Shown piece after piece: positions 9,595 to 64,000 of a DNA stretch of 64,000 nucleotides; position 1 is the stretch's first letter, and the number at the start of each line of letters is the position of its first letter. The notes under the pieces were generated by a model, which did no database searches, was not told the DNA's origin, and was given only the letters and a program-made list of their open reading frames with translations. The stretch is from positions 1,799,379 through 1,863,378 of the forward strand of contig OY820579.1 in assembly GCA_963681965.1 (NCBI GenBank). The letters run 5' to 3'. Source of the DNA: a bacterium. GTDB taxonomy: Bacteria > Electryoneota > JAOADG01. Position numbers and translations under genes: made by a program.

Positions 9595-12500
9595 AGCGAA
9601 CGACTGCCTACTCGATTTTAGGAATATCGCTCCTGCTGCTGATTGGAGTGGCGTTTGCGCAAGTAACTCCATTCAATCACGCTGAATTATTATGGCGAAC
9701 GATCGAAGGGAAGCACCACATCGTCCATTACCACGTCGGCGCTGAACGTACTGCTCAAATGATTTTGGATATTGCCGACGAAGTACATCAACCACTTGCC
9801 GATCTGTACAAATACGAACCGGATACGAAAGTCAACTGGGTCATTTACGATACCGACGATTATGCCAACGGCGCGACGTATTTCCTGAACAATCGCATCG
9901 TGATCTGGGCACCGGCACTCGATTTTGAATTTCGTGGTACGCATAATTGGCTTCGAAATGTTGTGACGCATGAATATACTCATATGATTCAACTCGGAGC
10001 TGCACGGAAGTGGTCGCGACAGATGCCGGCGATCTACGGACAGTATATCGGTTATGAACCGGAAACCCGACCCGATGTTCTGTATGGTTTCCCGAATCGG
10101 ATCATGAGTTACCCACTATCCAATACTACCGTTCCTCATTGGTTTGCCGAAGGAACAGCACAATCGATGCGCCGCGGAATGAATTACGATTATCGCGATA
10201 GCCACCGCGAGATGCTTCTTCGCTCTCGAGCGCTTGCCGACAATTTGTTGACGATGGATGAGATGGGTGTCTTCGAGAAGACTAGTCTTGGCGGCGAATT
10301 GGTTTACAACCAGGGATTTGCGTTAGTTCAATACATAATCGACCGGTTCGGTGAAACTGCTTTAAGAACACTATCTGAATCACTCGGGTCAATGTCGGTT
10401 TGGTCGTTCGATGCCGCGTGCCGGAAGACACTGGGTATACCGGCTCAGAAGCTTTACGATGAATGGGTTCGCGCGATGAAGGAAACCTATCGCGTGCGCA
10501 CTGAAACAATACGCCAGCACGAAGTGACCGGTCGATTGTTGGAAGAAGATGGCTTTGCTAATCTATATCCACGATGGTCGATCGACGGGAAAAAAATATA
10601 CTTTACCTCGAATAAGGAAAAGGATTATTTCGGTGGATCGTCGTTGGTCGAGATGAATCTTGCAACCGGTAAGAAAGAGAAGCTCGTCAAAACAATGGCA
10701 CCCTTTGCAGTTCACCCGAATGGCAAAGGATTGATCTATTCGGAACAACCGTTACAAAAGGGGCAGCGACGACTCGACGATCTATTCTTCTACGATTTTG
10801 CGAAGAAAAAATCCTACCGGCTGACTTATGCCGAACGTGCGCAACAACCCGATGTTTCATCGGATGGGAAAAAGATTGTCGCCGTCACGCAATCCGACGG
10901 AACGATGAATCTTGTCGTGTTTGAACTTCCCGATTCGATCAAAGCCGATGTGAAGCAAAAAGCACAACTGAAGAAACGAGTATTGACATCCTATGTCAAT
11001 GGCGAACAATTATCTCACCCTCGATTTTCACCTGACGGAAATAAAATTCTTTATTCTTTCGCACGCGAACAAAACCGCGATCTATTCGAATTCGATCTAA
11101 CGACAAATACTTCCACGCTACTGCGCGCGAGTAAATGGGATGACCGCGACGTCGCATGGTCAAAAGATGGTCAGTGGATCTATTTTTCCAGCGACTCAAC
11201 TGGTATCTGGAATATTTACCGGATGCGTAGCGATCGCACAATCATCGAACCGGTGACGAATGTTGTCGGCGGTGCTCTGCTCGGTGAACCATCGCCGGAT
11301 GGTGCGAAATTGGCATTCTGTCGATACGAATCGACCGGCTATAAGTTAGCATTATTGGATAAAATCGAACCAGTCGATCGAGCATACATGCAGTATCAAC
11401 AGAACTATGCTCAATCGCTGCCGAATGTGTCGATACCCGATTCGATGCCACCGGCGAAACCAGTCATGAAATACAAACCGGCATTCGAGAAAACCTATAT
11501 TCTTCCGCGAATTGCTTGGGATTACGGTCGTTTCAAACCCGGTTTCTATGTCTATACGAACGATTATCTGGAAAAATTGAACCTGTTCGGTGGCTTTGCG
11601 ATTAATGGTAAGAAGGACTACGACTTGTATTTGTCGACCGACTACCGACAACTTCCACCGACGTTGTTCATGGACTTTTACAATATCGTCCGTCACGACG
11701 ATAAACGATTCGATGATCCGCTCCGAATTGTTGGTCAATCCGGTCACGGTGATTCAGCCCAACCGATTTATGCACAATATGGAACAAAATATAAGTTCAC
11801 GTTGCTCGAATTGGATATCGGTTTCCGGTACAATATCGATGAGAAGACTGTTGCCAGTTTGTATGGTATGTTCTCGCGCTACAGTGCGGCACTAGATTTC
11901 GACGACGGTTCATCATCGTTTGGTTACACGTATTTCAAAGGTCACAGTCTTGTCGCTTCGCTTACGCAAACCGCAATTACGCGCAGTGTAACCGATGACA
12001 TCAATCCGTCCGGTGGTTATCAATTCGGAATTCGGGCGCAACGCTCGCAGCACAATTACATCCAAGGGTTCACCATCAACGCCGATAAACTGACACTGCA
12101 GGAAGTCTATTCACCCTACAATTACTGGCAGTTGGAAGGATCGTTTAATTATTATCAGAAGCTCTGGCATAAATGGGTGATGTCGCCGTCGGTTAAACTT
12201 GGTTATATCGATCGTAACGTCGATCCATTCATGAATCTTTATGCCGGTGGTTTGTTCGGGATGCGCGGCTATTCGTTCTATAGTCTTGGTGGTACTCGCA
12301 CGACTATTGCACAACTAGCACAGGAACTCCCGTTGTGGGAGCCGATGGGCAAACGACAGTATCTCGGTTGGGTACATCCGATAAGCGTCTATGCCAATCT
12401 ATTCGCCGATGTCGGATCGGCATGGCGTGGCGATGTGCAACATGCAAAATGGGTGCGGGATTTGGGTGGTGAATTGCGGTTTGGTTCGATATCGGTATTC

Positions 12501-13628: not shown

Positions 13629-14264
13629 ATGAAACGACTCTATCTGGTAATTTTTTCTGGATTGATTGCGCTGACGTCGTTTGCGCAACCGCTCCCGCGT
13701 CCGAAAGCACCTACCGGTTCAACGGTATTTTTCAAGTCGCTGTTGTTACCGGGATGGGGGCAGATGTCGCAGGGAAGACCAAAAGAGGCTACAATTTTCC
13801 TGTCATCCGAAGCGATCCTAATTGTTACTACATTTGGTTTGCAAACCTACGGTGATTGGCTCAAAAGCGACTATCGATCGGTAGCAGCGCTCTATGCCGG
13901 GATCCCGAATGGCGGTAATCGGAACCATACAATGTATGTCGATATGGGAAATTGGAATACCGTGGAAGAATTCAATGCTGCACGACAACGCGATCGCGAA
14001 TATGATCGACAATATTTGAAAGCCGAGGATCAGTGGCGCTGGACGAATGATTCCGAACGAAGGCGTTTTAAAGCGCTTCGTTTGAAATCGGATAAAGTAT
14101 TGGAATCGGTTAAATTCTCGATCGGTGCGGTAGTCGTCAATCATTTTATTGCCGCAATTGAAGCATCAGCATTCGAACGTAAGAAAGTGAAAAACCCGTC
14201 GATCGGTGTCACGATGTCGGGAACAACGAGCGAACCACAGGTTCGACTTCATGTGAATTGGTAA
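13629..14264 (+). CDS. secreted hypothetical protein, paralog B (PG-x-GQ motif family, DUF5683-like)
   Basis: Starts 2 nt after the paralog A stop; signal peptide ...LTSFA; motifs SLLLPGWGQM + SSEAILIVTTF and C-terminal VVNHFIAAIEASAF. Confidence 0.55.
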   Translation: MKRLYLVIFSGLIALTSFAQPLPRPKAPTGSTVFFKSLLLPGWGQMSQGRPKEATIFLSSEAILIVTTFGLQTYGDWLKSDYRSVAALYAGIPNGGNRNHTMYVDMGNWNTVEEFNAARQRDREYDRQYLKAEDQWRWTNDSERRRFKALRLKSDKVLESVKFSIGAVVVNHFIAAIEASAFERKKVKNPSIGVTMSGTTSEPQVRLHVNW

Positions 14265-14281
14265 ACTTCTGTTACGCGGAA

Positions 14282-14318
14282 AACGGGCAACTCGTCTGAG
14301 TTCGCCCGTTTTTTTTCG
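14282..14318 (+). terminator. intrinsic terminator closing the porU operon
   Basis: acgggcaactc...gagttcgcccgt stem followed by TTTTTTTT. Confidence 0.7.
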
Positions 14319-14371
14319 AAGAACATATCAATCAGGATTGACGGGAACAGTGAATTCGGTTACTTTTTAGT

Positions 14372-15259
14372 ATGAAGAGACGAATCTTAATAACGGGTGC
14401 ATCCGGATATCTTGGGGGGCATCTAGTTCTCACTGCTCCACAGGATTGCGAGTGTTTCGCTATGTACCGGTCGGCTCGACCTGAAAGCGATTTTGGTGCT
14501 CATTGGATTCAGGGCGATTTAATCGATGCTTCGCTTCCACATCAGCTAATCCGGGATATTCGACCCGATGCGATTATTCACAATGCCGCCTTATCGAAAC
14601 CGGAAGAATGCGACGACAATCCCGATCTTGCCAATGAAATCAATATCGAAGCTACCGATCGTCTAGCTACTGTGTCCGATCAGACCAGTACCCGCTTTAT
14701 ATTTTTGTCTACCGATATGGTTTTCGATGGGAATCATCCCCCATATACCGAGTCATCCCTGCCAAACCCCATTCACCGCTATGGAATTACCAAAGTTACT
14801 GCTGAACGTCGAATTGCGAATAGATCGGATAAACATGCAATTGTACGTTCTTCCGTGATCTTCGGACCACAAGGGATCTTCAATTCCAATTTTGCCATGC
14901 ATCTGATTGACCACTGGCAACTCGGCGAGCCGACCAATGTATTTGTCGACCAATTCCGAAATCACGTATCGGTGAAATGGTTGTGTCAAGCCTTGTATGA
15001 ACTGACCGAATCCGCTTTCTCCGGGATCTTGCATCTTGGTGGCGGGGAATCGACGAGTCGAGCCGAATTTGCCCACTGTCTCGCGAAACGCTTGAATTAT
15101 CCCGACCAATTGTTGACTGAAACCTCTTTAGTTGGTAAGTTGCTTGCGCCTCGACCTCGAGATTTAACGTTCGATGTGCAATTAGCCAGATCGGTTTTGA
15201 AAACTTCACCGCTCACACTGGCGCAAGGTATTGCGTTGGAGTGGGCACAAATACTGTAA
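14372..15259 (+). CDS. rfbD: dTDP-4-dehydrorhamnose reductase-like SDR (RmlD family)
   Basis: ILITGASGYLG Rossmann motif; STDMVF and YGITK motifs match the RmlD STDYVF/YGxTK; 295 aa. Confidence 0.7.
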   Translation: MKRRILITGASGYLGGHLVLTAPQDCECFAMYRSARPESDFGAHWIQGDLIDASLPHQLIRDIRPDAIIHNAALSKPEECDDNPDLANEINIEATDRLATVSDQTSTRFIFLSTDMVFDGNHPPYTESSLPNPIHRYGITKVTAERRIANRSDKHAIVRSSVIFGPQGIFNSNFAMHLIDHWQLGEPTNVFVDQFRNHVSVKWLCQALYELTESAFSGILHLGGGESTSRAEFAHCLAKRLNYPDQLLTETSLVGKLLAPRPRDLTFDVQLARSVLKTSPLTLAQGIALEWAQIL

Positions 15260-15263
15260 TGCC

Positions 15264-15923
15264 ATGACACCTATCGACTTATCAGCAACACAGCCCTATC
15301 TAGCGCTTGCCGGCAATATTGGCGTGGGAAAAACGACCATGACGACCCTACTGGCATCGAAATTGCGTTGGGATCCATGGTTCGAACCGGTCATCGACAA
15401 TCCTTATCTCGACGACTTTTACGCCGATATGCATCGCTGGAGTTTCCATCTCCAAATCTACTTTCTCTCGAAAAGATTCGAAGCGCAACGGCGCATCCTC
15501 GATAATTCGCGACCCTCTGTACAGGATCGAACAATCTATGAAGATGTCGAGATCTTTGCTCGAACGCTACACAAACAGAAGTTTATGACTGATCGCGAAT
15601 ACGAAAACTACTCTTCGCTATTCTCTTGTATGATGGAGTATCTAAGACCACCGGATGCAATTGTATATCTACGCGCTCCGGTAGAGGTTTTGCTGGATCG
15701 AATTTCAAAACGCGGTCGCGACTCCGAGAAGACTATTGCCAGATCATATTTGGAGGAATTGAATAACGCCTACGAAAGCTGGATCGAACGTTCAAAAGAT
15801 CTAACTCAGGTGTTAATCTTCGATACTGCCATTTTCGACAATGAAGGTGCAGATGCACTTTCAGATCGAATTATCAGTACGTTACGTGCAAGTCCACAAT
15901 TATCATTCCTGCCATTTGCCTGA
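15264..15923 (+). CDS. deoxynucleoside kinase (dAK/dGK/dCK family)
   Basis: P-loop GNIGVGKTT; motifs FEPVIDNPYLDDFY, RWSFHLQIYFL, DRTIYED typical of the dNK family. Confidence 0.8.
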   Translation: MTPIDLSATQPYLALAGNIGVGKTTMTTLLASKLRWDPWFEPVIDNPYLDDFYADMHRWSFHLQIYFLSKRFEAQRRILDNSRPSVQDRTIYEDVEIFARTLHKQKFMTDREYENYSSLFSCMMEYLRPPDAIVYLRAPVEVLLDRISKRGRDSEKTIARSYLEELNNAYESWIERSKDLTQVLIFDTAIFDNEGADALSDRIISTLRASPQLSFLPFA

Positions 15924-16047
15924 TCATTCCCAATCAGGCTGAACTTTTTGTAATTTAGATCTAGGTGTTGCAGCACACGTGCGATTAGTCGTAATCGTCA
16001 CGCTGTGCTGTGTTACTATTCAAAACAACATTAGGTGGTTATTTATT

Positions 16048-16482
16048 ATGTCACTACAATCGTTCAAAGTGCTGCAAATCGATCATCTTGGCGTTGCAGT
16101 AAAAGATTCTTCACCGATCTCGAACTTCATGTCGGTACTTGGGATTCCACAATGCGGCAATGAAATTGTGGCGGATCAGCGAGTAGCAACAACCATGTTC
16201 GACGCAAATTCCGTTCATGTCGAATTACTTGCCGCGACCGACGACCAATCGACCATCGCGAAATACATTGAGAAGCGCGGAGAAGGATTTCACCATATCG
16301 CTTTTCGCGTCGACAATCTCCAGAACGCACTGAGCGCATTGTCTGAAGCAGGGGTTCAGTTAATCGACCAAACACCGCGCAAGGGAGCAGGGGGCAAACT
16401 GATCGCGTTTCTACACCCAAAATCCACCGGTGGCATTTTGGTCGAGCTTTCGCAAATCGATCCCGAAATGGATCATCGATAA
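16048..16482 (+). CDS. mce: methylmalonyl-CoA epimerase (VOC/glyoxalase family)
   Basis: AGGTGG RBS; IDHLGVAV...GEGFHHIAFRVDNL...GGILVEL motifs; ~145 aa. Confidence 0.75.
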   Translation: MSLQSFKVLQIDHLGVAVKDSSPISNFMSVLGIPQCGNEIVADQRVATTMFDANSVHVELLAATDDQSTIAKYIEKRGEGFHHIAFRVDNLQNALSALSEAGVQLIDQTPRKGAGGKLIAFLHPKSTGGILVELSQIDPEMDHR

Positions 16483-16503
16483 GTCGAGATACTGGAGAAC
16501 GAA

Positions 16504-17697
16504 ATGAGCAACTACATCGATCCGAATTGGAAGATGTCAACGTTAGTATGTCACGGTGCCGGTGGATCCGATCCCGCTACTGGTGCTCACTGCAAACCGA
16601 TTTATCAAACATCGACTTTTGCCTTCCGCGATGCCGATCACGGCGAAAATTTATTTACTGGAAAAGAAAAAGGTTTTATCTACAGTCGTTTGGGCAATCC
16701 GACGATCGAAGGACTGGAACACGAAATTACCTGCCTCGAGAGTGGTGTTGCCGGATTGGCGTTTGGTAGTGGCATGGCTGCAGTCAGTGCCGTGATTCTT
16801 GGTATCTGTGGAGCTGGTGAAAACTATATCACTACTGTGCCGATTTATGGTGGAACGCATACTCTCGGTCAATCCATACTACCTCGATTCAATATCGAAA
16901 ATCGGGAAGTGAATTGCTCCGATTTGGCAGCATTGGAAGCCGCGATTGACGAAAACACCCGGTTGATCATGATTGAAACACCGGCGAATCCGACGATTCG
17001 CTTGGTCGATATCGAAGAGTGTGTGAAAATTGCCCGTCGACACAATGTTGTATTGGCAATCGACAATACATTCGCAACCCCCTATCTCCAAAATCCATTG
17101 AAAATGGGCGCCGATATCGTATTGCATTCGGCAACAAAATATATCAGCGGTCACGGCGATACGGTAGCCGGGCTAGTTGTCTGTTCGACCGAAGAACTGA
17201 AATTAAAAATTCAACCCATTCAGCACGATATCGGTGGTGTTATCTCGCCGTTCAACGCGTTCCTGTTGTTACGCGGATTGAAAACTCTGGCTGTGCGGAT
17301 GGATCGACACTGTATGAATGCGTTGAAAGTAGCACAATATCTATCTTTCCATCCGAAAGTAGCTGAGGTATGGTATCCCGGCTTATCAACACACCCCGAT
17401 CATGAATTGGCTAAAAAACAGATGCGCGATTTCGGAGGTATGGTTTCATTTATTCTAAAAGGTGGTAGATCTGCTGGCAAAACGGTATTGAATAACGTTA
17501 AACTGGCGGTAAATGCTGTTTCACTCGGCGATACCGATACTTTGATCGTTCATCCGGCAACGACTACTCATAGTAGTTACTCGCCTGAAGCACTGAAACT
17601 TGCCGGTATGGATGAAGGATTAGTTCGACTTTCGGTTGGTATCGAAGATTATCACGATATAATCGACGACTTGTCTCAAGCGCTAAAACAAGTCTAG
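16504..17697 (+). CDS. PLP-dependent trans-sulfuration family enzyme (methionine gamma-lyase / O-acetylhomoserine sulfhydrylase-like)
   Basis: Cys/Met-metabolism PLP fold; PLP-lysine motif SATKYISGHGD; 397 aa, close to the size of methionine gamma-lyase. Confidence 0.75.
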   Translation: MSNYIDPNWKMSTLVCHGAGGSDPATGAHCKPIYQTSTFAFRDADHGENLFTGKEKGFIYSRLGNPTIEGLEHEITCLESGVAGLAFGSGMAAVSAVILGICGAGENYITTVPIYGGTHTLGQSILPRFNIENREVNCSDLAALEAAIDENTRLIMIETPANPTIRLVDIEECVKIARRHNVVLAIDNTFATPYLQNPLKMGADIVLHSATKYISGHGDTVAGLVVCSTEELKLKIQPIQHDIGGVISPFNAFLLLRGLKTLAVRMDRHCMNALKVAQYLSFHPKVAEVWYPGLSTHPDHELAKKQMRDFGGMVSFILKGGRSAGKTVLNNVKLAVNAVSLGDTDTLIVHPATTTHSSYSPEALKLAGMDEGLVRLSVGIEDYHDIIDDLSQALKQV

Positions 17698-17708
17698 TGG
17701 AGTAAGAT

Positions 17709-18170
17709 ATGATTCCTCTCGAAGAAATATTGAAAGCTTCCGGACTGACCCGGTCGATGAAGGATGAGTTTGTCGCAACTTTAATTGAGTTCACTGAACT
17801 TCAACACTTTGCGAAAGACCAAACCGTTATTCACGAAGACAGTCGAGACCGGGATATGTTTATCCTAGTGGAGGGAAAGGTTTCGATTAACCTTTTCGTT
17901 CCCGGAACGCTGGATCGAATGGAATCGATTGTCACACTTCGTGCCTATCAAGTGTTCGGAGAATTTTCGTTAATTGATGGTGCCCCGCGCTCGGCAGCCG
18001 TTAAAGCGGATACCGATATCGTGGTATATCGACTGAGTGCTGAGAAGCTACTGCATTATTGCGAAACGAATTGCGAATTCGGATACCGCTTGATGCAGAA
18101 TCTGGCAGCAATTCTCGCAGCGCGAATCCGCGATACGACGTTATTGGTTCGCAACAATATTATTTGGTGA
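17709..18170 (+). CDS. cyclic nucleotide-binding domain protein (stand-alone cNMP-binding, no HTH)
   Basis: Beta-roll signature FGEFSLIDGAPRSAAVKA; 153 aa. Confidence 0.65.
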   Translation: MIPLEEILKASGLTRSMKDEFVATLIEFTELQHFAKDQTVIHEDSRDRDMFILVEGKVSINLFVPGTLDRMESIVTLRAYQVFGEFSLIDGAPRSAAVKADTDIVVYRLSAEKLLHYCETNCEFGYRLMQNLAAILAARIRDTTLLVRNNIIW

Positions 18171-18177
18171 TGTAATT

Positions 18178-20142
18178 ATGGCTACTAGAAAACGGGCAGG
18201 GGGGGATTCTCCTGCCCGTTCTCAGTCTATTTCCGAATTAGCGGTTCCACTGGAAGATAAGTTGGAATCGCTGCCGATGCGTCCGGGGTGCTATCTATTC
18301 AAAGATAGTAAAGGCAAAGTTATTTATGTCGGCAAAGCGAAATTGCTCCGCAATCGTGTTCGCAGTTATTTTTCCGGTCGTAGCGATGGGAGAGCACAAT
18401 TTCACCGTCTAGTGAATGCAATTCGCGATCTTGAGATCATTATCGTCGATAGTGAAATTGAAGCATTAATTCTCGAAAACAATCTGATCAAATTTCATAA
18501 ACCCCGTTACAACATCGATCTCCGCGACGATCGCGGTTATCCCTTCTTGAAAATAACCAATGAACCTTTTCCACGTATCTTTCTTCAGCGAACACCCGGG
18601 AACGACGATGCTAAATATCTAGGTCCATTTATGGAAGTTACGGCATTGCGGAGTCTGGTAAGAGAGTTGAAGAAGACCTTTCGGATTCGAACGTGTGAGT
18701 TGATAATTAACTCCGATTCGATTGCCAAAAAGAAACACAAAATCTGCTTACAATATCACCTGAAACTCTGCGATGGACCCTGCGAAGGACTGACTACGGA
18801 AACCGAGTATCAAGCGAATGTGAAATCGATGATCGATTTACTCAATGGTCGGACAACCGGTTTCGAACGGAAATGGCAGAATCGCATGACTGAATTAGCT
18901 GCAGCCAAACGATTTGAGGAAGCAGCGTTGTTCCGAGATCAATTGCGCGCGATTCAACACATGGCATCCCGCCAACGGGTATTGTCAGTCGATCCCTATG
19001 ATCGCGATGCCGTCGGAATTTATCGCATTGACGATGAAGCTTGTGTCGTACTATTGCGAATTCGAAACGGGAAAATGGTCGGTCGATTGCACTATTTCCT
19101 GACACAAATCGATCCCGATCACACCGAGCCGGAATTGGTGTCGGCATTTCTATTTCGACACTATTCCACCGCCGACATCCCGCCAGAGATTTTTGTGCAA
19201 AGCGAATCGGAAGAGTGGGATACGATTGCAATCGCACTCAAAAAGCTTCGCGGAAGCAACTGCAAGATCGAAGTACCCAAAATCGGCGATAAAGCGGGAC
19301 AGGTCCGATTGGCAATTGCCAATGCCGAATTGTTGCTCGGTCAGAATATGCTCTCAAAACAGAAACGCGATTTCATTCCGCAAAGTATGAAGGGACTACA
19401 GGAGTTGCTGGGTCTGGAAAAAGCACCGACTCGGATAGAGTGTTTCGATATCTCGCACTTAGCCGGAACCGGTACAGTAGCGTCTATGGTCTGTTTTGTC
19501 AATTCGAAACCGGCTCGCTCGGAATATCGTAAATTTGTCGTAAAGACCGTCACCGGGATCGATGATTTCGCCTCGATGAAAGAAGTAGTCGGTCGACGTT
19601 ACAAGCGGCTTATATCGGAAGAAAAATCGCTGCCGGATGTAATATTGATTGACGGTGGTAAAGGTCAACTCTCAGCCGCTCGCGAAGCACTTGCCGAAGT
19701 CGGTATTCCCGATCACCCGATACTAGGATTGGCAAAGCGTGTCGAAGAACTATTTTTGCCGCAAGAAACTGAATCGCGGATCCTTCCCAGAACCTCAAGC
19801 GTTCTTAGAGTGTTGCAACAGATTCGCGACGAAGCGCACCGCTTTGCCGTGACATTTCAGCAACAACGCCGCAATCTTTCGCTCAAATCCCAACTGGAAG
19901 AGATCCCAGGGATTGGTGAGGCACGACGTCAACTATTGATGAAACGATTTGGAAGCGTTGCAGCGATGAAGAAAGCATCGATCGAAGAAATTGCCGAAAT
20001 CGGTGCAATCGGTTCCAAATTGGCTAATAAAATTCTGGTCTATCTGAATGCGAATGGACAAACGAATGAACTCAATCAATCTGGAAACGATGAAATATCG
20101 AAACCGATTGGTTCGAATGGAGACAATGATGGTGAAGAGTAA
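18178..20142 (+). CDS. uvrC: excinuclease ABC subunit C
   Basis: GIY-YIG motif PGCYLFKDSKGKVIYVGKAKLLRNRV; C-terminal HhH; 654 aa from the ATG at 18178. The start is uncertain; the alternatives are TTG at 18262 or ATG at 18277. Confidence 0.85.
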   Translation: MATRKRAGGDSPARSQSISELAVPLEDKLESLPMRPGCYLFKDSKGKVIYVGKAKLLRNRVRSYFSGRSDGRAQFHRLVNAIRDLEIIIVDSEIEALILENNLIKFHKPRYNIDLRDDRGYPFLKITNEPFPRIFLQRTPGNDDAKYLGPFMEVTALRSLVRELKKTFRIRTCELIINSDSIAKKKHKICLQYHLKLCDGPCEGLTTETEYQANVKSMIDLLNGRTTGFERKWQNRMTELAAAKRFEEAALFRDQLRAIQHMASRQRVLSVDPYDRDAVGIYRIDDEACVVLLRIRNGKMVGRLHYFLTQIDPDHTEPELVSAFLFRHYSTADIPPEIFVQSESEEWDTIAIALKKLRGSNCKIEVPKIGDKAGQVRLAIANAELLLGQNMLSKQKRDFIPQSMKGLQELLGLEKAPTRIECFDISHLAGTGTVASMVCFVNSKPARSEYRKFVVKTVTGIDDFASMKEVVGRRYKRLISEEKSLPDVILIDGGKGQLSAAREALAEVGIPDHPILGLAKRVEELFLPQETESRILPRTSSVLRVLQQIRDEAHRFAVTFQQQRRNLSLKSQLEEIPGIGEARRQLLMKRFGSVAAMKKASIEEIAEIGAIGSKLANKILVYLNANGQTNELNQSGNDEISKPIGSNGDNDGEE

Positions 20143-21541
20143 ACAACCTCGACGGAAATGGTTATGGATGATTCTAACGATTCTTATAATCGGATCATCA
20201 GTTGTTGTGATAGCGGCAAGCAATGAATCGCGTACTTGTTTTATTTATCCCCCATTCAAACATACTTGGGGTGTGGTTCGAGGAACTCCAGCTAAGTTAT
20301 TCATGTTAGTCGGGAAACGAGCCACTTTTGCAGAGCCATTAGGACTTTGCTGCGTGCGGCTCGATTGTTGGGATGACCCGAAAATTGCTGGCGATGACGA
20401 CGAAGTGACAGTTTACGGCGTCAATTCCAATCAAAATATGGTGATCTATAATAAATCGATGTTTGAATTGGGGATATATGGCGACCGTGAGACCGGATCG
20501 GCAAAACTCAATAAACCTTGGGGTGTAGCTGCCAACAATAAAGGTGACGTGTTTGTAACCGATTTAGGGAATAACCGAGTGGTGAAATTGTTCAATCCCA
20601 AATCGGAATTGAAGTATGTATCGGCTTTCGGCTCGCTAGGTTCAAATAATGGTCAATTCAATTCACCTCGAGGTATTGCACTTGACAACCGCGGAATGAT
20701 CTATGTCGCCGATTATCTGAATAATCGCGTTCAGATTTTCAACTCATCCGGTGTTCATCAGCGAACCATCTTCGGAGTATTGGGTCCGATTGCTGTTGCC
20801 GTGATCGATGCCGAGGATCGTTGGAGCTACTCTTATGGACCGCGTCGCGAAGAATTTCTAATTGTCGTTGACTCGCTCGATGCACGTATTTCGAAATATT
20901 CGCTTGAAGGCGATCTGCTGGAACGGGTAACCTCGGGCGATTGGGGTGCTGGTACCTGTCAACTTCAATTCTGCACAATCGATTATTTCTCGCAGGTTTT
21001 ATTAACCGACCGGAAAAATAATTGTATCTGGAAACTGGATCGTGATTTGAAAATGATCTGTCGGTTTGGTCGCAAAGGTACTTCCGATTACGAATTCGAC
21101 GATCCGAGGGGAATTACGATGTATCGTCGCTTTGGTCAGACCTTTGTTGCGGAACGGGAAGGGGCACAATATTTGTGGGTTGCCGTCGACTTACTTCACC
21201 CACAGGCAAAATGGGATGAGAAGACACGAATCTTGACCATCACCGGAATTTATTCCGAACCGGCGTTGGTTGATATGGACTTACTTGATGCATCCGATAA
21301 AATTGTAACCAGAGTTGCGATGATCCGATCTACTGCTGGACCGTTCCAACATGAGTGGGATGGAAATATTAAAACATTTCCAAAATCAGGGTTGACCGAT
21401 GCCGAACAATCGCAAGCAGCCCGGTTCCAAGATGGAAAACCGGTACCTCCCGGAAGTTACAAATTGAGGATCGCTTCGAAAGCGACCTATTCTTCAATCA
21501 AGGATTTCGTACAGGTGTTGACGATACCTGTCACACTTTAA
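20126..21541 (+). CDS. NHL-repeat beta-propeller protein with N-terminal signal anchor
   Basis: KSKQPRRK followed by a hydrophobic LWMILTILIIGSSVVVIAA stretch; NHL repeats (NKGDVFVTDLGNNRVVKLF; PRGIALDNRGMIYVADYLNNRVQIF); the start overlaps the uvrC 3' end by 17 nt. Confidence 0.6.
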   Translation: MMVKSKQPRRKWLWMILTILIIGSSVVVIAASNESRTCFIYPPFKHTWGVVRGTPAKLFMLVGKRATFAEPLGLCCVRLDCWDDPKIAGDDDEVTVYGVNSNQNMVIYNKSMFELGIYGDRETGSAKLNKPWGVAANNKGDVFVTDLGNNRVVKLFNPKSELKYVSAFGSLGSNNGQFNSPRGIALDNRGMIYVADYLNNRVQIFNSSGVHQRTIFGVLGPIAVAVIDAEDRWSYSYGPRREEFLIVVDSLDARISKYSLEGDLLERVTSGDWGAGTCQLQFCTIDYFSQVLLTDRKNNCIWKLDRDLKMICRFGRKGTSDYEFDDPRGITMYRRFGQTFVAEREGAQYLWVAVDLLHPQAKWDEKTRILTITGIYSEPALVDMDLLDASDKIVTRVAMIRSTAGPFQHEWDGNIKTFPKSGLTDAEQSQAARFQDGKPVPPGSYKLRIASKATYSSIKDFVQVLTIPVTL

Positions 21542-21556
21542 ACTACTTGGAGTTAA

Positions 21557-21982
21557 TTGTCCGGTATGTTGCATCACGTTGAATTGTATGTCGCTGATTT
21601 GAATCGCTCTCTGGCGTTCTGGGATTGGTTTCTACGGGAACTTGGATACTCTGAATTCCAATCTTGGGACTCGGGAAAAAGTTTCAAATTCGGCGATACT
21701 TATATCGTATTTGTTCAAGCTGAACGGCGATTTTGTCAGGAACCGTACCACCGTTGTCGACCGGGTCTCAATCATCTGGCATTTCATGCGAAGTCACGCG
21801 AACAAGTAGACCAGATTTCAAGGGAAATTCAGTATAGGGGGTTGAAGTTACTATATCCTGAACGTCATCCTTATGCAGGTGGCGAAGGGTATTACGCCCT
21901 CTTCTTTGAAGATCCCGATCGAATGAAAGTGGAATTGGTTGCTCCAGATCCCATCGAGATTAGTACTCACTCCGAGGGGTGA
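21557..21982 (+). CDS. VOC-family (glyoxalase/bleomycin-resistance fold) protein
   Basis: LHHVELYVADL...YALFFEDPD; TTG start at 21557 or ATG at 21566. Confidence 0.6.
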   Translation: MSGMLHHVELYVADLNRSLAFWDWFLRELGYSEFQSWDSGKSFKFGDTYIVFVQAERRFCQEPYHRCRPGLNHLAFHAKSREQVDQISREIQYRGLKLLYPERHPYAGGEGYYALFFEDPDRMKVELVAPDPIEISTHSEG

Positions 21983-22140
21983 GTGATTGAAATAATTGTG
22001 GTTTCATTTTCTGTTAAGCAGAAACAATTATCTAACAATTTTCTGAGGAGTCTTTTAACTGACCGAGTGGAATTCTAAATTGTTTCACTCAAGAGTAATC
22101 ATTTTTTCGTCGATAGAAGATACGAGGAGGAAGTGGTTCG

Positions 22141-22338
22141 ATGGAATCTGATCGATTGAATATTATCCATAACTGGCGGCAGGTTTACCAACCCACACCG
22201 GATGGGCGGAACCGTCACCAAAATGGACAATCTTCACCGGATCGAGAACACTCCGAACACCATGATAAAGAACCACCATCGCACGATCCTGTAACCCATC
22301 CCAAAGATGAAGAGCACAAAGTGGATATGACGGTTTAA
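22141..22338 (+). CDS. small His/Asp/Glu/Pro-rich hypothetical protein (65 aa)
   Basis: GAGGAGG RBS 10 nt upstream of the ATG; followed by an intrinsic terminator at 22360-22388; low-complexity composition HSEHHDKEPPSHDPVTHPKDEEH. Confidence 0.35.
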   Translation: MESDRLNIIHNWRQVYQPTPDGRNRHQNGQSSPDREHSEHHDKEPPSHDPVTHPKDEEHKVDMTV

Positions 22339-22359
22339 CAGGATCAACATGAATTTGAA

Positions 22360-22388
22360 AAAGCAGGCGAAAAGCCTGCTTTTTTGTT
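22360..22388 (+). terminator. intrinsic terminator (agcaggc-gaaa-gcctgct + TTTTTTG)
   Basis: Perfect 7-bp stem, GAAA tetraloop, T6 run. Confidence 0.75.
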
Positions 22389-22423
22389 GTATCTTATGGT
22401 TTAACAAGAATAGAAATTCACTG

Positions 22424-23842
22424 ATGTTTGCATCATTTTGGAACAAAATTACCGATTCTCTTCGTGGAACCACTAATGATCCTGGTGGTATAGCTAAACG
22501 TTTGAAATCGCTTTTATCTGGCTCGAATCGAGCGGAAACAATATCCTTTGTTCGAAGAGGTGCCCGATCCTTACGTTTGCGAAGCTTGGATTTGAAAACC
22601 GGTTCCAATTCAAAATCGCTGGTTGCCGAAGTCGATGATTGGGTTTTCACGTCTGGTCAAAATGACACAATTCGTTTGATTTTAACTGTATCTCACTGGC
22701 AAGGCGGCGAGGAAATTCGACTCGAAGGAGAAACGGATGTCGTGGAACCTCCATCCATTGTTCCAGGAATAGTCGAGCTGACAATTCCCGAAAGTATGTC
22801 GCAAACTACACTGGAATTTTTAACACGACCCGATCCAGTTAAACCACTTACTTACTATTTTTCAATCGATGGTGAGGAATTTCACGCACCCGTTCTAGAA
22901 ATGAGCCGTCGTAGTTTCCGGTTTCGACTTCCCGCCGATCAGGACATTTCACCGGATGGTGCGTTAAATGGCGATGGTTATATTCGTTTTGTCGATGGGA
23001 CGTCAATTCCATTTGAGAGTTGGTGGAACCGGATCGGTAAACTGTTGACCGAAGCTGAAATCCAACGGATCAAATCAAAGCAATTAGAAATTGTAATCGC
23101 TTATCTTCGGGACCGGTTTTTAGCACAAGAAGTCGTATGGGATGGGATGCATAAAGTCGATCCCGAAGACGACAACGAACCGGGCATTCGGATGCGCCGT
23201 AAATCGCAATTAGGTGATTTGAAAGCGCTTTGGTTAGATTCTGATGCACCACCATCGAATTGGTTTCCCGGTGCGATTGAACCGGTTCAGAAATGGACTT
23301 CGAAAAGTGCCGATGCGATCGCAGTCGAATATGATGCTGTTATTGGTTCAAATCGCAGTTTAGTAAACTGGATTGAACAAAATTCGTTGAGTAATAATTT
23401 CGAAAATCAGTGCGTTATCATTCAGCTTGGAACCGGTCAAAGTCACGCTTTGACGATAACTTCCATCGAGAAGACAACTGATCCGGTCGATTGGGAAGCT
23501 CTATTTGGTTGGACCAAGCGATATGACTATGAAATTGAGAAAGAAGCTTATTTGGTTGAAGGTTCTCGGCGTGATCATTTCCGGCTGGCACAACAGCTTA
23601 CGCCATTCAATGTTCGATTGCACTGGATCACTCGAAGTAAACTATTTCCTGAAATTGGATCATTTATTTTTCTACCGGACGACTATTCAATAGCGACTCA
23701 ATTGATCGAGGCAAATAAGTTGTTAATCCCTCTAGTTCGAGCTTGGGTCTTAGGTGAGGGTGGGGTGGAATGGGATTCGATCGGCATTGCGCCAATGCCA
23801 AATGTAGAAGAATGGGCTGAGAAATTTGCCAATGAACAATAA
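22424..23842 (+). CDS. hypothetical protein (473 aa)
   Basis: Long ORF; the start was moved to the first ATG downstream of the terminator hairpin; no confident domain assignment. Confidence 0.5.
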   Translation: MFASFWNKITDSLRGTTNDPGGIAKRLKSLLSGSNRAETISFVRRGARSLRLRSLDLKTGSNSKSLVAEVDDWVFTSGQNDTIRLILTVSHWQGGEEIRLEGETDVVEPPSIVPGIVELTIPESMSQTTLEFLTRPDPVKPLTYYFSIDGEEFHAPVLEMSRRSFRFRLPADQDISPDGALNGDGYIRFVDGTSIPFESWWNRIGKLLTEAEIQRIKSKQLEIVIAYLRDRFLAQEVVWDGMHKVDPEDDNEPGIRMRRKSQLGDLKALWLDSDAPPSNWFPGAIEPVQKWTSKSADAIAVEYDAVIGSNRSLVNWIEQNSLSNNFENQCVIIQLGTGQSHALTITSIEKTTDPVDWEALFGWTKRYDYEIEKEAYLVEGSRRDHFRLAQQLTPFNVRLHWITRSKLFPEIGSFIFLPDDYSIATQLIEANKLLIPLVRAWVLGEGGVEWDSIGIAPMPNVEEWAEKFANEQ

Positions 23843-59788: not shown

Positions 59789-59831
59789 TTCTTTAATTCC
59801 TGGCTTATTAGATCAGTTTTTTCTGGATTCG

Positions 59832-59861
59832 AAAAGGGCGTAGCGATACGCCCTTTTCGTT
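59832..59861 (+). terminator. intrinsic terminator after icd
   Basis: aagggcgta-gcga-tacgccctt followed by TTTCGTT. Confidence 0.65.
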
Positions 59862-60656
59862 AATAGAATATTTATATTAAACAAACTGATATATATTATA
59901 GTTAATAGTATGTGTGAATATTGTATTTATACTCAATAAATATACTTATTAAACGAAAGAAATGAGATTAAATGCTGTCGACAATTATTGAGCTAAGATT
60001 AGGTGCAAGTCCAGAGATGAATCGAAAAGTTAATAAGTAGATCAGAAACTTTACGTTGAAGTAATTTTCGAATTGCATCCTCAACAATGATAAACTCTAG
60101 GAGAACTCATTCTTCTCTGACTCGAAACGTAACAATCGTCAGAAAATTGGATCGGATGTTGTCCAATTTTGTGAATCCCAATTGATATCAGGTCGCAAAT
60201 CTGGATACCTCATCTTTCGAATCGATTTGAATCGTTCCCATTGCGCGATTCTCTTGACATTTTCGATAGTTTGGTTTGGTGCAACGAATCATCGAATAAA
60301 CACCTCTAACTCTCGCCTCTAGTGTTGCAAGAGCCGTATTTAGACATTATCTTGAACCCACAAGACACCAAGTAGTTCCCGGCTTTTCCGGCACGGTTTA
60401 CGAAGTTCCAAATCCTCGCTAACGATTAATTTAACTTTACTCTAGCGAGTGGTTACTCACCGGAATTTAGATGAGACTTGATATCCGTTTTACGATTGTT
60501 GTTTCGATTTATTCCGAAGTAGACATCTTACTTCGGTTAGACGATTTGTCCATTCGGTGACCGAACGAAGTTCGCGCATGTTTGTGTGCTTTTAGATCTT
60601 TTTTATCAACCGGTTCCTGTGACGCAAACCCACGAAATATTGGAGACGGGGTGGCG

Positions 60657-63600
60657 ATGAGAAGTTCAAAAATTATAGTCATTGTTCTGCTATCGTTGCT
60701 AGTGAGCGGATTAGCATTTGGTGCAACTTCGGGTAAAATCACCGGAAAGGTGATGCTTGACGACACCAAAGAAGGCGCGATTTCCGCATCGGTACTGATT
60801 CTCGAATTGAAGACCGGTGCGAAAACTGACTTTGAGGGAAATTACACCATCCTGAACATTCCCCCGGGAACGTATACATTGCGGTTCTCTTATGTCGGGT
60901 ATGCTTCCGTCAAAGTCAATAACGTGATCGTTACTTCGGGTGTCACATTTACTCAAAATGCGACATTGAAACCGGAAGCGCTTCAACGCGAAGAAATCGT
61001 CGTTAAAGCCGACCCGCCAAAAGTACAATTGGACGTGACCGGTGGCGATAAGACAATCCGTAAACAGGATATGGAGCGTACTTCGGCTAACAGTGTGCAG
61101 GATATTATCGCGAAAAAAGCCGGTGTCAAAGTTGATCATGAAGGCGCGCTTCACGTTCGCGGTGGTCGAAGAGGCGAAGTCGCAATGCTGCTCGATGGAA
61201 TCGATATCCGCGATCCGCTTGTGGGAAGGATTAACGATAATGTTAACCTCGACGCCGACGCCATCAGCGAAATTAACTTTTTAACAGACGGTTTTTCGCC
61301 GGAATATGGTCAAGCCCTTTCTGGCATTGCCAACGCCAGTTTCCGCGAAGGCGATCCGGAAAAATATACGGCCAAGGCTGAATACACTTCCGATCAATTC
61401 AACAAAAAGTCGTCGTTTGGACAGGATCGCATCACACTCTTCGTGAGTGGACCAATCCCCGGTACCCGAAAAGCGCTCAAGAACCCAATCACTTTCATGG
61501 TTCAAGCAACTTCAAGCCAAACGAACACTTATCTATCCTACGGGATTCACCGTGAACCCAACGATTATCTTGGAATCGGAATCAAATTACCAGAAAAACA
61601 ATATAATAACTACGATCTAACCTCGAAGTTTGCTTATCAATTTCCACCGGATAAATCGGGTGGCGCGAAAAAGATCACTCTTACTTACACCGGGTCATTT
61701 TCGCAGTGGGATCTCTATCCCAATGGTGAAGCGAATGTAAGCGGCGATTACGGATATCGCTACAAATTCAATACCGAAAATCGCCCATGGGCAAGAAGTA
61801 ACCGAAATTCGGTTAACGTTCAATTCACGAACAACTTATCATCCAAGACGAATTACACTGTCAGTTTTACCTTCCAGAATTCACGCACATTGGTGCAACC
61901 GCGAAACAAAACGCCGGGTGAATTTACGCTCCGCTCGCAAGTGGAAGATTACGAAGCCAATGGTCAGGATTTGAACGGTGACGGTTACCCCGATGGATTC
62001 GTCGATGCCAATGGCGACGGTATTTATTCCGGTGGTGGACACGGATACGACGACGTGAATAAAAATGGCAAGTGGGATCGTGGCGAAGACTGGGTTGACC
62101 TAAATAGTAATGGTGTTTACGATGCCTCAGAAACATTCACCGACCTCAACAGCAATGGTGTTTGGGATGTTGGTGAACCGTTCGTCGATCTGAATGGTAA
62201 CGCCCGTTGGGATCCCGCAGAACCCCAACTTCCGGAACAGGACTGGAATCACAATGGTCACTGGGATGGTGAACGATTTCAGGATGCCGACAAAGATAAG
62301 AAATTTACCGGTTGGAACTGGGTCGACAAGAACGGCAACGGTAAAATGGACGATGGCGAGCAACTCTGGGGCAACTCAGGTGAACGATTGGACGGCGACG
62401 GATACGACGATACGAATAACGACGGTAAATGCAATAAGAAGGAACTCTTCGCTACCAGTCAAGATACACCCGAACCGTACATTGATGGCGATTACTTCTA
62501 CGATACCGGTGAACCATTTATCGATCAACCCGATCCAGTCACTGGTGAATACAATGGAACTCGGGATGATAATGAATATTGGGTAGACTTACCTTCGACT
62601 AATGTTGGCTTCGGGATGATCGTAGACACATCTTCGCATTCCCTTCGCGAACCGACGCTTAACGGTAAGTACGACGATCCCGATGGTCAACCGGATGAAT
62701 ACGAACTTTTCTGCTACCCCGCGACGCCTTCACAATTGCGTGCCGACCCGACCCGCCCGGTAATCTATACCGGTCGATGGGATGGCGATGTTGCCAATTG
62801 GCCGCGCAAGAACGGACGACTTTTCCCCTATTATTTTGTCGATCGTTCCAACTCTGGAATTGCAAGCGATACTTTGCGTTCAACTTGGATCAAGCGAACG
62901 ACAACTAATCTCGATCCAAAAATCTTCAATCCACCTACCGGATCATACGTAGCTGGCGATCCGTTCACCGATTACAACAAGAATGGTGTCTGGAATGGTC
63001 GCGACTTGTTCTTAAATCCGGGACAGTGGGATGAAAGCGCGATTTGGCAAGATCGTAAATCGGTCGAATATTCTTTGAAAACTACGTGGCAGTCGCAAAT
63101 CAAGCATCACGAGTTAAAGGCTGGTGTCGAAGCCAAGTACCGCGACTTGCAGATGCAGTCGATTAGCAGCCCCGATATGGCTTACACTGGTGAAGTTCCG
63201 CTTCCGGCAGGTAGTCCCTGGCCGGATCGTGGTAACACCCGTGACTTCTATCATTACAAACCGATCGAAGGCGCATTCTATTTCAACGATAAGATGGAAT
63301 TTGAAGGATTGATCGTTAACGCCGGTATTCGTAACGACTTCTTGATTACCGACCCCGAGTTGCGACAACAAACCAAAGACGCAGTATCTGCCGGTGTTCC
63401 GGGAGCTATTGTGGCACAACCCGGGAAAGCGATTTTCAGTCCGCGTCTCGGTATATCGCACCCGATTACTAAGACCTCGAAGTTATTCTTCAATTACGGT
63501 CACTTCTATCAGCGACCCGACTTCACGAATTTCTTCAAGTCGACCACGTCCAATGTGGCGTCGGGTTCGGTTGTCGGTAATCCCAATTTGGATTACACCA

Positions 63601-64000
63601 AGACCGTTCAATATGCATTGGGTGTCCAGACCGAACTTCCGAACGGTAGTTCGTTCATGATCCAAGGTTACTATAAGGACTATTTCAATCTTATCGGTAC
63701 CCAAACCGAAAAATACGGTCCGTTGACGATCGACCGATATGCCAACAAGGCGTATGGTCGTGCTCGTGGCTTTGAAATCGAGCTGGATCATACCATTGAG
63801 AATATCGCGCGGGAAGGTGATTTGCGATTGAATTCCTCCTACGACTTCTCATACACTGCCGGTAAGAGTTCGACCCAAGATGCCGATGCTTTGAACCGAC
63901 TGAATGGTGTTCCGGCAAATACCGAAGAATATCCCTTGGATTGGGATGAACGACATCGTGTGAACGCTAGTTTCGGTTTGCAATTCGCGGAAGGGCGATA
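60657..64000 (+). CDS. TonB-dependent receptor (SusC-like; N-terminal carboxypeptidase-regulatory-like domain + plug + barrel); 3' end outside window
   Basis: GGAGA RBS; signal peptide; CarbopepD-like N-terminus (GKITGKV...DFEGNYTI...GTYTLRFSYVGYAS); plug motif AISEINFLTDGFSPEYGQALSG; the frame is open to the window end. Confidence 0.8.
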   Translation, partial: MRSSKIIVIVLLSLLVSGLAFGATSGKITGKVMLDDTKEGAISASVLILELKTGAKTDFEGNYTILNIPPGTYTLRFSYVGYASVKVNNVIVTSGVTFTQNATLKPEALQREEIVVKADPPKVQLDVTGGDKTIRKQDMERTSANSVQDIIAKKAGVKVDHEGALHVRGGRRGEVAMLLDGIDIRDPLVGRINDNVNLDADAISEINFLTDGFSPEYGQALSGIANASFREGDPEKYTAKAEYTSDQFNKKSSFGQDRITLFVSGPIPGTRKALKNPITFMVQATSSQTNTYLSYGIHREPNDYLGIGIKLPEKQYNNYDLTSKFAYQFPPDKSGGAKKITLTYTGSFSQWDLYPNGEANVSGDYGYRYKFNTENRPWARSNRNSVNVQFTNNLSSKTNYTVSFTFQNSRTLVQPRNKTPGEFTLRSQVEDYEANGQDLNGDGYPDGFVDANGDGIYSGGGHGYDDVNKNGKWDRGEDWVDLNSNGVYDASETFTDLNSNGVWDVGEPFVDLNGNARWDPAEPQLPEQDWNHNGHWDGERFQDADKDKKFTGWNWVDKNGNGKMDDGEQLWGNSGERLDGDGYDDTNNDGKCNKKELFATSQDTPEPYIDGDYFYDTGEPFIDQPDPVTGEYNGTRDDNEYWVDLPSTNVGFGMIVDTSSHSLREPTLNGKYDDPDGQPDEYELFCYPATPSQLRADPTRPVIYTGRWDGDVANWPRKNGRLFPYYFVDRSNSGIASDTLRSTWIKRTTTNLDPKIFNPPTGSYVAGDPFTDYNKNGVWNGRDLFLNPGQWDESAIWQDRKSVEYSLKTTWQSQIKHHELKAGVEAKYRDLQMQSISSPDMAYTGEVPLPAGSPWPDRGNTRDFYHYKPIEGAFYFNDKMEFEGLIVNAGIRNDFLITDPELRQQTKDAVSAGVPGAIVAQPGKAIFSPRLGISHPITKTSKLFFNYGHFYQRPDFTNFFKSTTSNVASGSVVGNPNLDYTKTVQYALGVQTELPNGSSFMIQGYYKDYFNLIGTQTEKYGPLTIDRYANKAYGRARGFEIELDHTIENIAREGDLRLNSSYDFSYTAGKSSTQDADALNRLNGVPANTEEYPLDWDERHRVNASFGLQFAEGR

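Follow-up and report, generated by a model that had tools for sequence, protein, structure and literature searches.

What is a long run of aspartate- and asparagine-rich repeats doing inside a TonB-dependent receptor? The question is raised by the last gene of a 64,000-nucleotide stretch of contig OY820579.1 (assembly GCA_963681965.1, positions 1,799,379 to 1,863,378 of the forward strand) from a bacterium of the Electryoneota (GTDB lineage JAOADG01). This whole stretch is referred to here as the window. The open reading frame (ORF) of the receptor starts with an ATG at window position 60657 on the plus strand and extends to the window end at 64000, giving 1114 amino acids (aa) with no stop in frame. 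The complete protein, P0001, is 1261 aa long and 100% identical, and is found on a 4.34-Mb contig in a public collection. Its last 147 aa fall beyond the window end.

TonB-dependent transporters (TBDTs) normally recognise their substrates via modest loops or separate lipoproteins. In P0001, one barrel loop houses an entire conserved domain, whose repeat is common in extracellular bacterial proteins yet unmatched at threshold in the copies of Pfam, NCBIfam and the PDB that were searched. The reading we favour, with somewhat better than even confidence, is that the fourth extracellular loop (L4) of this transporter has been expanded into a calcium-rigidified surface domain that serves substrate capture, partner docking or both.

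The insertion lies inside the barrel

P0001 is a TonB-dependent transporter composed of a plug and a 22-strand barrel. The Plug domain (aa 126-223, window 61032..61325; this and all features below are on the plus strand) matches Pfam PF07715 with E = 4.2e-8 and 34.1 bits against a cut-off of 23.9. It is preceded by a CarboxypepD_reg-like domain (aa 28-116, 60738..61004) that matches PF13715 (E = 3.7e-17) and PF13620 (E = 2.5e-13). A PF00593 match is precomputed on record for the protein, and NCBIfam gives weak, partial matches to TonB-dependent receptor models only. An AlphaFold2 model (m01bb801bf144) was built for aa 117-1261 from an alignment of 82 sequences, so that model numbering plus 116 equals protein numbering. 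The model has a mean predicted local distance difference test score (pLDDT) of 80.8, a predicted template modelling score (pTM) of 0.76 and 22 barrel strands. Foldseek comparison with the PDB returned FusA, PqqU, YddB, PhuR, FhuA, BtuB and other solved TBDTs at E-values of 1e-27 to 1e-21, with FusA the best at 1e-27 and template modelling scores (TMt) of 0.60-0.82 to many TBDTs. The identification of the gene as a TonB-dependent receptor in the preliminary description, which was made from the sequence alone, is thus borne out by both domains and fold. The SusC label attached to it is not, since no SusC/RagA model is among the NCBIfam matches of P0001; no SusD gene is found among the downstream genes.

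The insertion, aa 416-795 (61902..63041), follows strand 7 (aa 398-415) in the model and precedes strand 8 (aa 796-815). Strands 1-7 span aa 238-415 (61368..61901; model residues 122-299) with a pLDDT mostly of 85-96, and strand 8 onward occupies 63042..64000 and runs off the window end. The connections from even to odd strands (6-7, 8-9, 10-11 and 12-13) are 2-5 residues long, as for periplasmic turns. Those from odd to even strands are mostly long, the exception being a tight 2-residue turn between the two long strands 15 and 16. Counts that begin at strand 1 and at the C-terminal strand 22 give the strand 7-8 connection the same parity. Because the insertion is an odd-to-even connection, the turns at the even-to-odd connections are short, and the parity agrees from both ends, the insertion is assigned to extracellular loop L4. 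The predicted outward-facing topology comes from this strand count in the model. It is in keeping with the large surface-exposed loop that had been proposed, though both the size and the site need correction: a segment of ~200 aa had been placed between the plug and the distal barrel, and it in fact comprises ~380 aa inside the barrel between strands 7 and 8. Of these, ~160 aa form the repeat array, and the rest is a non-repeat core and one last unit.

The array of nine ~15-aa EF-hand-like units covers aa 437-596 (61965..62444). It is followed by the conserved core of ~170 aa (aa 597-768, 62445..62960) and by a tenth, isolated unit, PFTDYNKNGVWNGRD, at aa 769-783 (62961..63005), which abuts strand 8. 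In the model, the core is partly confident (pLDDT 80-97) and has two short helices and a few short strands. The insert modelled alone has a mean pLDDT of 67, and a Foldseek search of that isolated model against the PDB found nothing below E = 5, so no fold is assignable. When the insert and the repeat profile were each used as query against PDB sequences, only chance-level matches came back, and nothing in Pfam or NCBIfam matched aa 435-802 of P0001.

The insertion defines a conserved receptor family

A homologue search returned ~60 full-length proteins of 1170-1340 aa with 37-64% identity and ~100% coverage. These orthologues come from metagenome-assembled genomes labelled Calditrichaeota, Cloacimonetes, Electryonea, KSB1 or just 'bacterium'. 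Many shorter relatives of 820-990 aa align outside the insertion only. Every long family member (1100-1340 aa) has 6-11 motifs in the same relative place and almost all of the 820-990-aa relatives have none. When long and short proteins are aligned together, aa ~425-785 of P0001 correspond to ~40 residues in the short relatives. The segment is therefore an insertion, as had been proposed, and is absent from the shorter relatives; homologues do not carry it as ordinary barrel strands.

Within the long family, each unit is kept in its own position, e.g. YEDLNxNGRWDRGEDWVDLNGNGxYDxAEPW…. The unit columns Asp1, Asn3, Asn5, Gly6, the aromatic at 8, Asp9 and Glu12 are 0.9-1.0 conserved for most units among 59 orthologues, and positions 1, 3, 5, 6, 9 and 12 of the tenth unit are 0.97-1.00 conserved across the family. 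The array is the best-conserved region of the protein, with a mean identity to P0001 of 52%, compared with 49% for strands 8-22, 40% for the plug and 38% for strands 1-7. Strong hidden Markov model (HMM) matches to the non-repeat core are confined to the TonB-dependent receptors of this family and one other protein, P0129. The relatives that lack the insert carry the Oar-like barrel domain PF25183, and the family itself has no PF25183 match on record. A literature search on TBDTs with EF-hand or thrombospondin type-3 insertions found no description of this receptor family.

The insertion is built from a 15-residue unit

P0001 contains eight copies of the strict motif D-x-[DN]-x-[DN]-G-x-x-[DN] (aa 438, 466, 481, 496, 529, 557, 585 and 772). 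Shuffled sequences contain a mean of 0.07-0.13 occurrences and a maximum of two. Compared with the rest of the protein, the repeat region is rich in Asp (17% vs 6%), Asn (10% vs 6%), Gly (14% vs 8%) and Trp (4.5% vs 0.7%). To avoid circularity, a 16-position unit HMM was built from the units of 60 homologues with P0001 left out. In P0001, this model scores ten units at 9 bits or more (9.0-19.5 bits), nine of them in the array and one, at 18.1 bits, at aa 769-783. In 200 composition-preserving shuffles of the insert, no unit reached 5 bits and the best score was 4.5 bits. The repeats are thus real and highly significant, as the preliminary description held them to be real. It had also placed a further copy ~300 aa downstream; the isolated unit exists, and lies 187 aa from the last unit of the array and 334 aa from the first.

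The units of the array start at aa 437, 447, 463, 478, 494, 508, 526, 555 and 582, and a further degenerate unit lies at aa 543. Taken from 61 proteins, 561 units give the consensus E-[GP]-[YFW]-x-D1-x-N3-x-N5-G6-x-[WYF]8-D9-x-x-E12-P, with a spacing mode of 15 residues. Positions that do not anchor the unit search are also recurrent: an aromatic residue at 8 in 74% of units, Glu/Asp at 12 in 57%, Pro at 13 and an aromatic residue at -2. The consensus residues D1, N3, N5, G6, D9 and E12 reproduce the ligand spacing (1, 3, 5, 9 and 12, with Gly6) of the 12-residue EF-hand loop. With a period of 15, only three residues link successive loops, and there is no room for flanking helices.

A recent repeat expansion at the DNA level was considered and ruled out. 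Tandem Repeats Finder detects no tandem repeat at the DNA level, and therefore the units are old and diverged.

The unit resembles calcium loops of several families

The identity of the repeat was sought by a Pfam scan of 28 segments from the family at E-values up to 10. The only recurrent matches are GEVED, DUF7151, EF-hand_6, SdrD_B, EF-hand_5 and Dockerin_1, all of them sub-threshold. These likenesses are to other calcium-loop families and speak for a calcium-loop relatedness of the units. At threshold, the tandem 15-aa arrangement has no match in Pfam or NCBIfam.

None of the candidate families fits as a whole. GEVED (PF20009) is matched in 28/28 segments with a best E of 4.8e-6, and was rejected: the segment from the window scores 17.7 bits against a cut-off of 24.4 and covers profile positions 5-26 of 78, a match that is read as the loop region only. 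A canonical EF-hand was rejected as well. No helix is predicted in aa 437-596, EF-hand_6 matches 10/28 segments with a best E of 0.079, and EF-hand_5 reaches E = 0.5. Dockerin type I (PF00404), also rejected, matches 3/28 segments with a best E of 1.8. For thrombospondin type-3, neither TSP_3 nor TSP3_bac matches any of the 28 segments at E up to 10, and there is one Cys in the whole array. The preliminary description had suggested thrombospondin type-3 or EF-hand-like calcium loops. The former identity has to be abandoned, the period also being different, and of the latter the ligand spacing holds and membership in the EF-hand family does not, given the missing helices and the sub-threshold EF-hand_5 and EF-hand_6 matches.

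The repeat occurs well beyond the receptor family

A word-indexed search with the array alone returned two short fragments and did not return P0001 itself, probably as a result of low-complexity words, and a profile search was used instead. This exhaustive search ran a profile of 4-5 units (alignment A3) over 1.84 billion cluster representatives and matched 1604 proteins at E <=1e-3, 298 at 1e-10 and 25 at 1e-30. The matched proteins range from 178 to 6275 aa and have up to 24 matched stretches each.

The best 150 of the 1604 matches comprise 148 new proteins (P0123-P0270) and two known family members. Among these 148, approximately seven are TonB-dependent receptors. Four TonB-dependent receptors outside the immediate family match both barrel halves, and in these the repeats again lie between the N- and C-terminal barrel parts, which corresponds to L4. 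The other proteins scanned include an S8 peptidase, a PD40/DPPIV_N beta-propeller protein, an AI-2E transporter, proteins with Big_1, bMG3, dockerin/BNR, PilY1 or PQQ-propeller domains, and several without any Pfam domain. The 15-aa unit is a widespread repeat, found across a wide range of extracellular architectures. No model or counterpart of it was found in the Pfam, NCBIfam or PDB copies.

In one matched receptor, P0252 (1200 aa), there is seemingly a second repeat-bearing insertion at ~aa 754-876, in a later loop, besides the one in L4.

The receptor heads a conserved gene cluster

Behind the receptor, past the window end, a conserved gene cluster is found on the same strand with short gaps (13804-23786 of locus L001). 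In this locus and three homologous contigs, the order is the receptor, a beta-helix/NosD-like protein (665-875 aa), a protein with no Pfam match (940-1086 aa; 945 aa in this genome, hereafter Unk945), a protein of 333-361 aa, and a further large protein. The PorV Pfam model matches the 333-361-aa protein in 3/4 loci, and NCBIfam places the one from this genome in the PorV/PorQ family with 180.6 bits against a cut-off of 90. By eye, the last gene of the cluster ends in a tail that resembles a type IX secretion system (T9SS) C-terminal sorting domain. The beta-helix protein has a signal peptide that ends in a lipobox Cys in 4/4 loci, followed by acidic residues in 3/4. Acidic residues behind the lipobox Cys are the export signal of surface lipoproteins in Bacteroidota. 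By this likeness, the beta-helix protein is probably a surface lipoprotein.

A tblastn search was extended to 40 further loci from GTDB species genomes. The receptor, the beta-helix gene, Unk945 and the PorV-like gene are found in essentially all insert-bearing loci with long enough contigs, and this synteny is kept in ~25 species-level genomes (L001-L029). In more distant loci (Fermentibacteria, Ignavibacteria, Marinimicrobia and Bacteroidota), the receptor is accompanied by an Unk945-like gene and a PorV-like gene; no beta-helix gene was detected in them by tblastn. In locus L034 (Ignavibacteriales), the receptor is short (934 aa). A separate ORF of ~390 aa (9989-11158) lies directly upstream, overlaps the receptor start by 4 nucleotides (nt) and contains two units. 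Approximately ten similar loci (L032-L044; Ignavibacteria and Bacteroidota) have the same layout of matches. Since the upstream ORF of L034 carries units, the module may be either fused into L4 or encoded next door.

Two other proteins on the same contig are related to the cluster. P0277 is a 53%-identical paralogue of Unk945 and hints at a second such cluster in the genome. P0073 is a 692-aa protein with a von Willebrand factor A domain whose N-terminal part is 70% identical to the N-terminal region of the receptor (17% of the query covered).

At the N-terminus of the receptor, a signal peptide, MRSSKIIVIVLLSLLVSGLAFG, was assigned by eye from the translation to aa 1-22 (60657..60722). A possible TonB box, REEIVVKADPP, lies at aa 110-120 (60984..61016). 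Its core, EEIVVKA (aa 111-117), resembles by eye the E-x-V-V-V-x-A type and is in the expected place before the plug.

Upstream of the receptor, isocitrate dehydrogenase is often the direct neighbour (3 of the four loci read), and Wzz and PilZ genes are found there in L004. In the window, isocitrate dehydrogenase and the receptor are separated by an unusually long non-coding spacer of ~870 nt (59789-60656). Rfam detects no riboswitch or other element in the whole window or in the spacer, and a promoter and terminator scan of the spacer gave results no better than shuffles. The preceding part of the window (39702-59788) encodes anaerobe-type central metabolism that is apparently unrelated to the receptor: a radical SAM/B12-binding protein, pyruvate:ferredoxin oxidoreductase, a dihydroorotate dehydrogenase-like protein, a FAD-dependent (geranylgeranyl-reductase-like) oxidoreductase, type III glutamine synthetase, aconitase and isocitrate dehydrogenase.

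Proposed role of the L4 domain

In the mechanism that we favour, L4 would have been expanded into an autonomous surface domain of ~380 residues. About half of this domain would be a chain of ten helix-less EF-hand-like loops, each of which most likely encloses a single Ca2+. Outside the cell, where calcium is abundant, the otherwise unstructured chain would fold with the ~170-aa core into a rigid, calcium-cemented module placed over or beside the barrel mouth. Such a module could provide an outer-membrane complex of several proteins with a surface that captures substrate and/or docks partners, and the cluster would encode this complex as the receptor, the beta-helix surface lipoprotein, Unk945, the PorV/PorQ-like barrel and the T9SS-tailed protein. 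A structural role of calcium fits the extracellular location. The E. coli transporter BtuB is a precedent: two Ca2+ in an aspartate cage raise its affinity for cobalamin ~1000-fold and restrain loop L2 (PMC7360065), so calcium ordering of TBDT loops can control substrate affinity.

From their ligand spacing and conservation, the units are predicted on good grounds to bind calcium. Several observations weigh against the favoured reading. Asn occupies position 5 in 85% of units, and most units therefore deviate from Dx[DN]xDG in its strict form (PMC3123361). Of the units of P0001, one fits the strict PROSITE EF-hand pattern PS00018, and six fit when the pattern is relaxed to allow an aromatic residue at position 8. 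Residues that the family keeps are changed in unit 511 (62178-62225; Gly6 to Ala) and in unit 543 (62283-62318; Gly6 to Lys and Asp9 to Thr), and because of these losses the two sites may be defunct in P0001. The array has a pLDDT of 42-60 and no secondary structure in the AlphaFold2 model, which makes any three-dimensional arrangement of the array, and its placement over the barrel, tentative. In the cluster, Unk945 returned only 'hypothetical' proteins in Pfam, NCBIfam, PDB and homologue searches, and common descent confounds the joint occurrence of insert and beta-helix gene. Upstream of the receptor, there is no riboswitch or known regulator to name the substrate.

The low model confidence and the Asp, Asn and Gly richness would also suit a surface loop that is intrinsically disordered, biased in composition and devoid of a specific function. 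This explanation is disfavoured and scarcely credible. No other region of the protein is as conserved as the array, the units all keep their positions and show invariant D, N, G, W and E columns in the 59 orthologues (40-64% overall identity), and shuffles that keep the composition yield no units. Because the ligand positions and the identity of each unit are strictly conserved, a defined fold is indicated rather than a disordered spacer. Rather than bind substrate, the insert might mainly dock partners, namely the beta-helix lipoprotein and/or the PorV/PorQ-like barrel with its T9SS cargo, by analogy with SusD capping SusC. The beta-helix gene stands behind the receptor in all ~25 insert-bearing loci and was not detected in distant loci where the receptor lacks the full insert, its product has the lipobox and acidic residues described above, and the PorV/PorQ neighbour scores above its cut-off. 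However, the first of these points carries the confounding by phylogeny, and the repeat is present in hundreds of proteins that lack these partners. We think a role mainly in docking unlikely.

Two further explanations change what the receptor itself does. It could be an exporter or surface-display device like the Oar-type TBDT of Myxococcus, with L4 acting on the cargo or anchoring exopolysaccharide or an S-layer via calcium bridges. In Myxococcus, the protease PopC depends on Oar for its secretion (PMC6434023). The Oar-like barrel of the insert-less relatives, the Wzz and PilZ genes upstream in L004 and the T9SS-type components among the neighbours are consistent with export. Yet the family itself lacks a PF25183 match on record, and the Wzz/PilZ context is found in one locus only, the three others having isocitrate dehydrogenase there; export is quite improbable in our judgement. 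Alternatively, the array could harvest metal, with Ca2+, lanthanides or another cation as the transported substrate, and ten EF-hand-like sites on a transporter would suit this. Pro at loop position 2 is the signature of lanmodulin, but the units have L, A, Y, W or V at this position and their Pro at 13. TBDT-linked lanthanide uptake is known, as is the EF-hand protein lanmodulin (PMC9260416). The repeat is, however, frequently found in peptidases and adhesin-like proteins, in which it more plausibly has a structural role, and calcium is not normally scarce outside cells. We regard metal harvesting as very unlikely.

If the calcium-rigidified L4 domain does bind calcium, it would be a new structural context for the calcium-loop superfamily. 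A new family model would be justified and would annotate well over a thousand protein clusters, and the conserved five-gene outer-membrane cluster would be marked as a target for the study of uptake or display in poorly known phyla. The receptor-bearing organisms are all uncultured, and the function and substrate of the L4 domain are inferred. As a speculative extension, and one that probably goes too far, the 15-residue unit could be a new, widespread calcium-'wire' fold. L4 might then be a calcium-dependent lid or receptor domain. Together with the beta-helix lipoprotein, Unk945 and the PorV/PorQ-like barrel, it would form a machine for nutrient capture or surface display that works without SusD and has not been described before, in Calditrichota, KSB1 and related phyla without cultured members.

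Comparison with known systems

The unit shares features with three kinds of calcium-binding repeat. Like the EF-hand (PS00018; EF-hand_5/6), it has a 12-residue loop with ligands at 1, 3, 5, 9 and 12, Gly6 and a hydrophobic residue at 8. It differs in having no flanking helices, an aromatic residue (Trp/Tyr) rather than Ile/Leu/Val at 8, and Pro after Glu12. Thrombospondin type-3 repeats have no secondary structure and are folded about a core of calcium ions. The contiguous Asp/Asn-rich loops of the array, which also lack secondary structure, are similar, but have no Cys pairs or disulfides, another period and another consensus. The Dx[DN]xDG calcium-binding motif is known from at least 12 unrelated structural contexts with near-identical use (Rigden et al. 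2011, PMC3123361). The units here would be expected to share its loop geometry, and dockerin, SdrD_B and GEVED match them weakly, though most units read D-x-N-x-N-G and are set in a tandem 15-aa arrangement.

Among transporters, the SusC/SusD- and Oar-type TBDTs of the Fibrobacteres-Chlorobi-Bacteroidetes (FCB) group share with this family the CarboxypepD_reg-like extension, downstream genes for surface partners and relatives with an Oar-like barrel. SusC/SusD systems differ in that no SusC/RagA match and no SusD gene are found here, and the partners are instead the beta-helix lipoprotein, Unk945 and the PorV/PorQ-like barrel. Neither the SusC/SusD- nor the Oar-type systems have a counterpart of the large L4 domain. 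A further parallel is BtuB of E. coli (PDB 1NQG/1NQH), whose calcium-containing structures are among the Foldseek matches of the AlphaFold2 model. In both, acidic residues of extracellular loops bind calcium and order the loops, putatively so in P0001. BtuB has no sequence relation to the L4 domain, and its short loops form a cage of five aspartates around two ions, whereas P0001 would use ten tandem loops within an L4 domain of ~380 aa.

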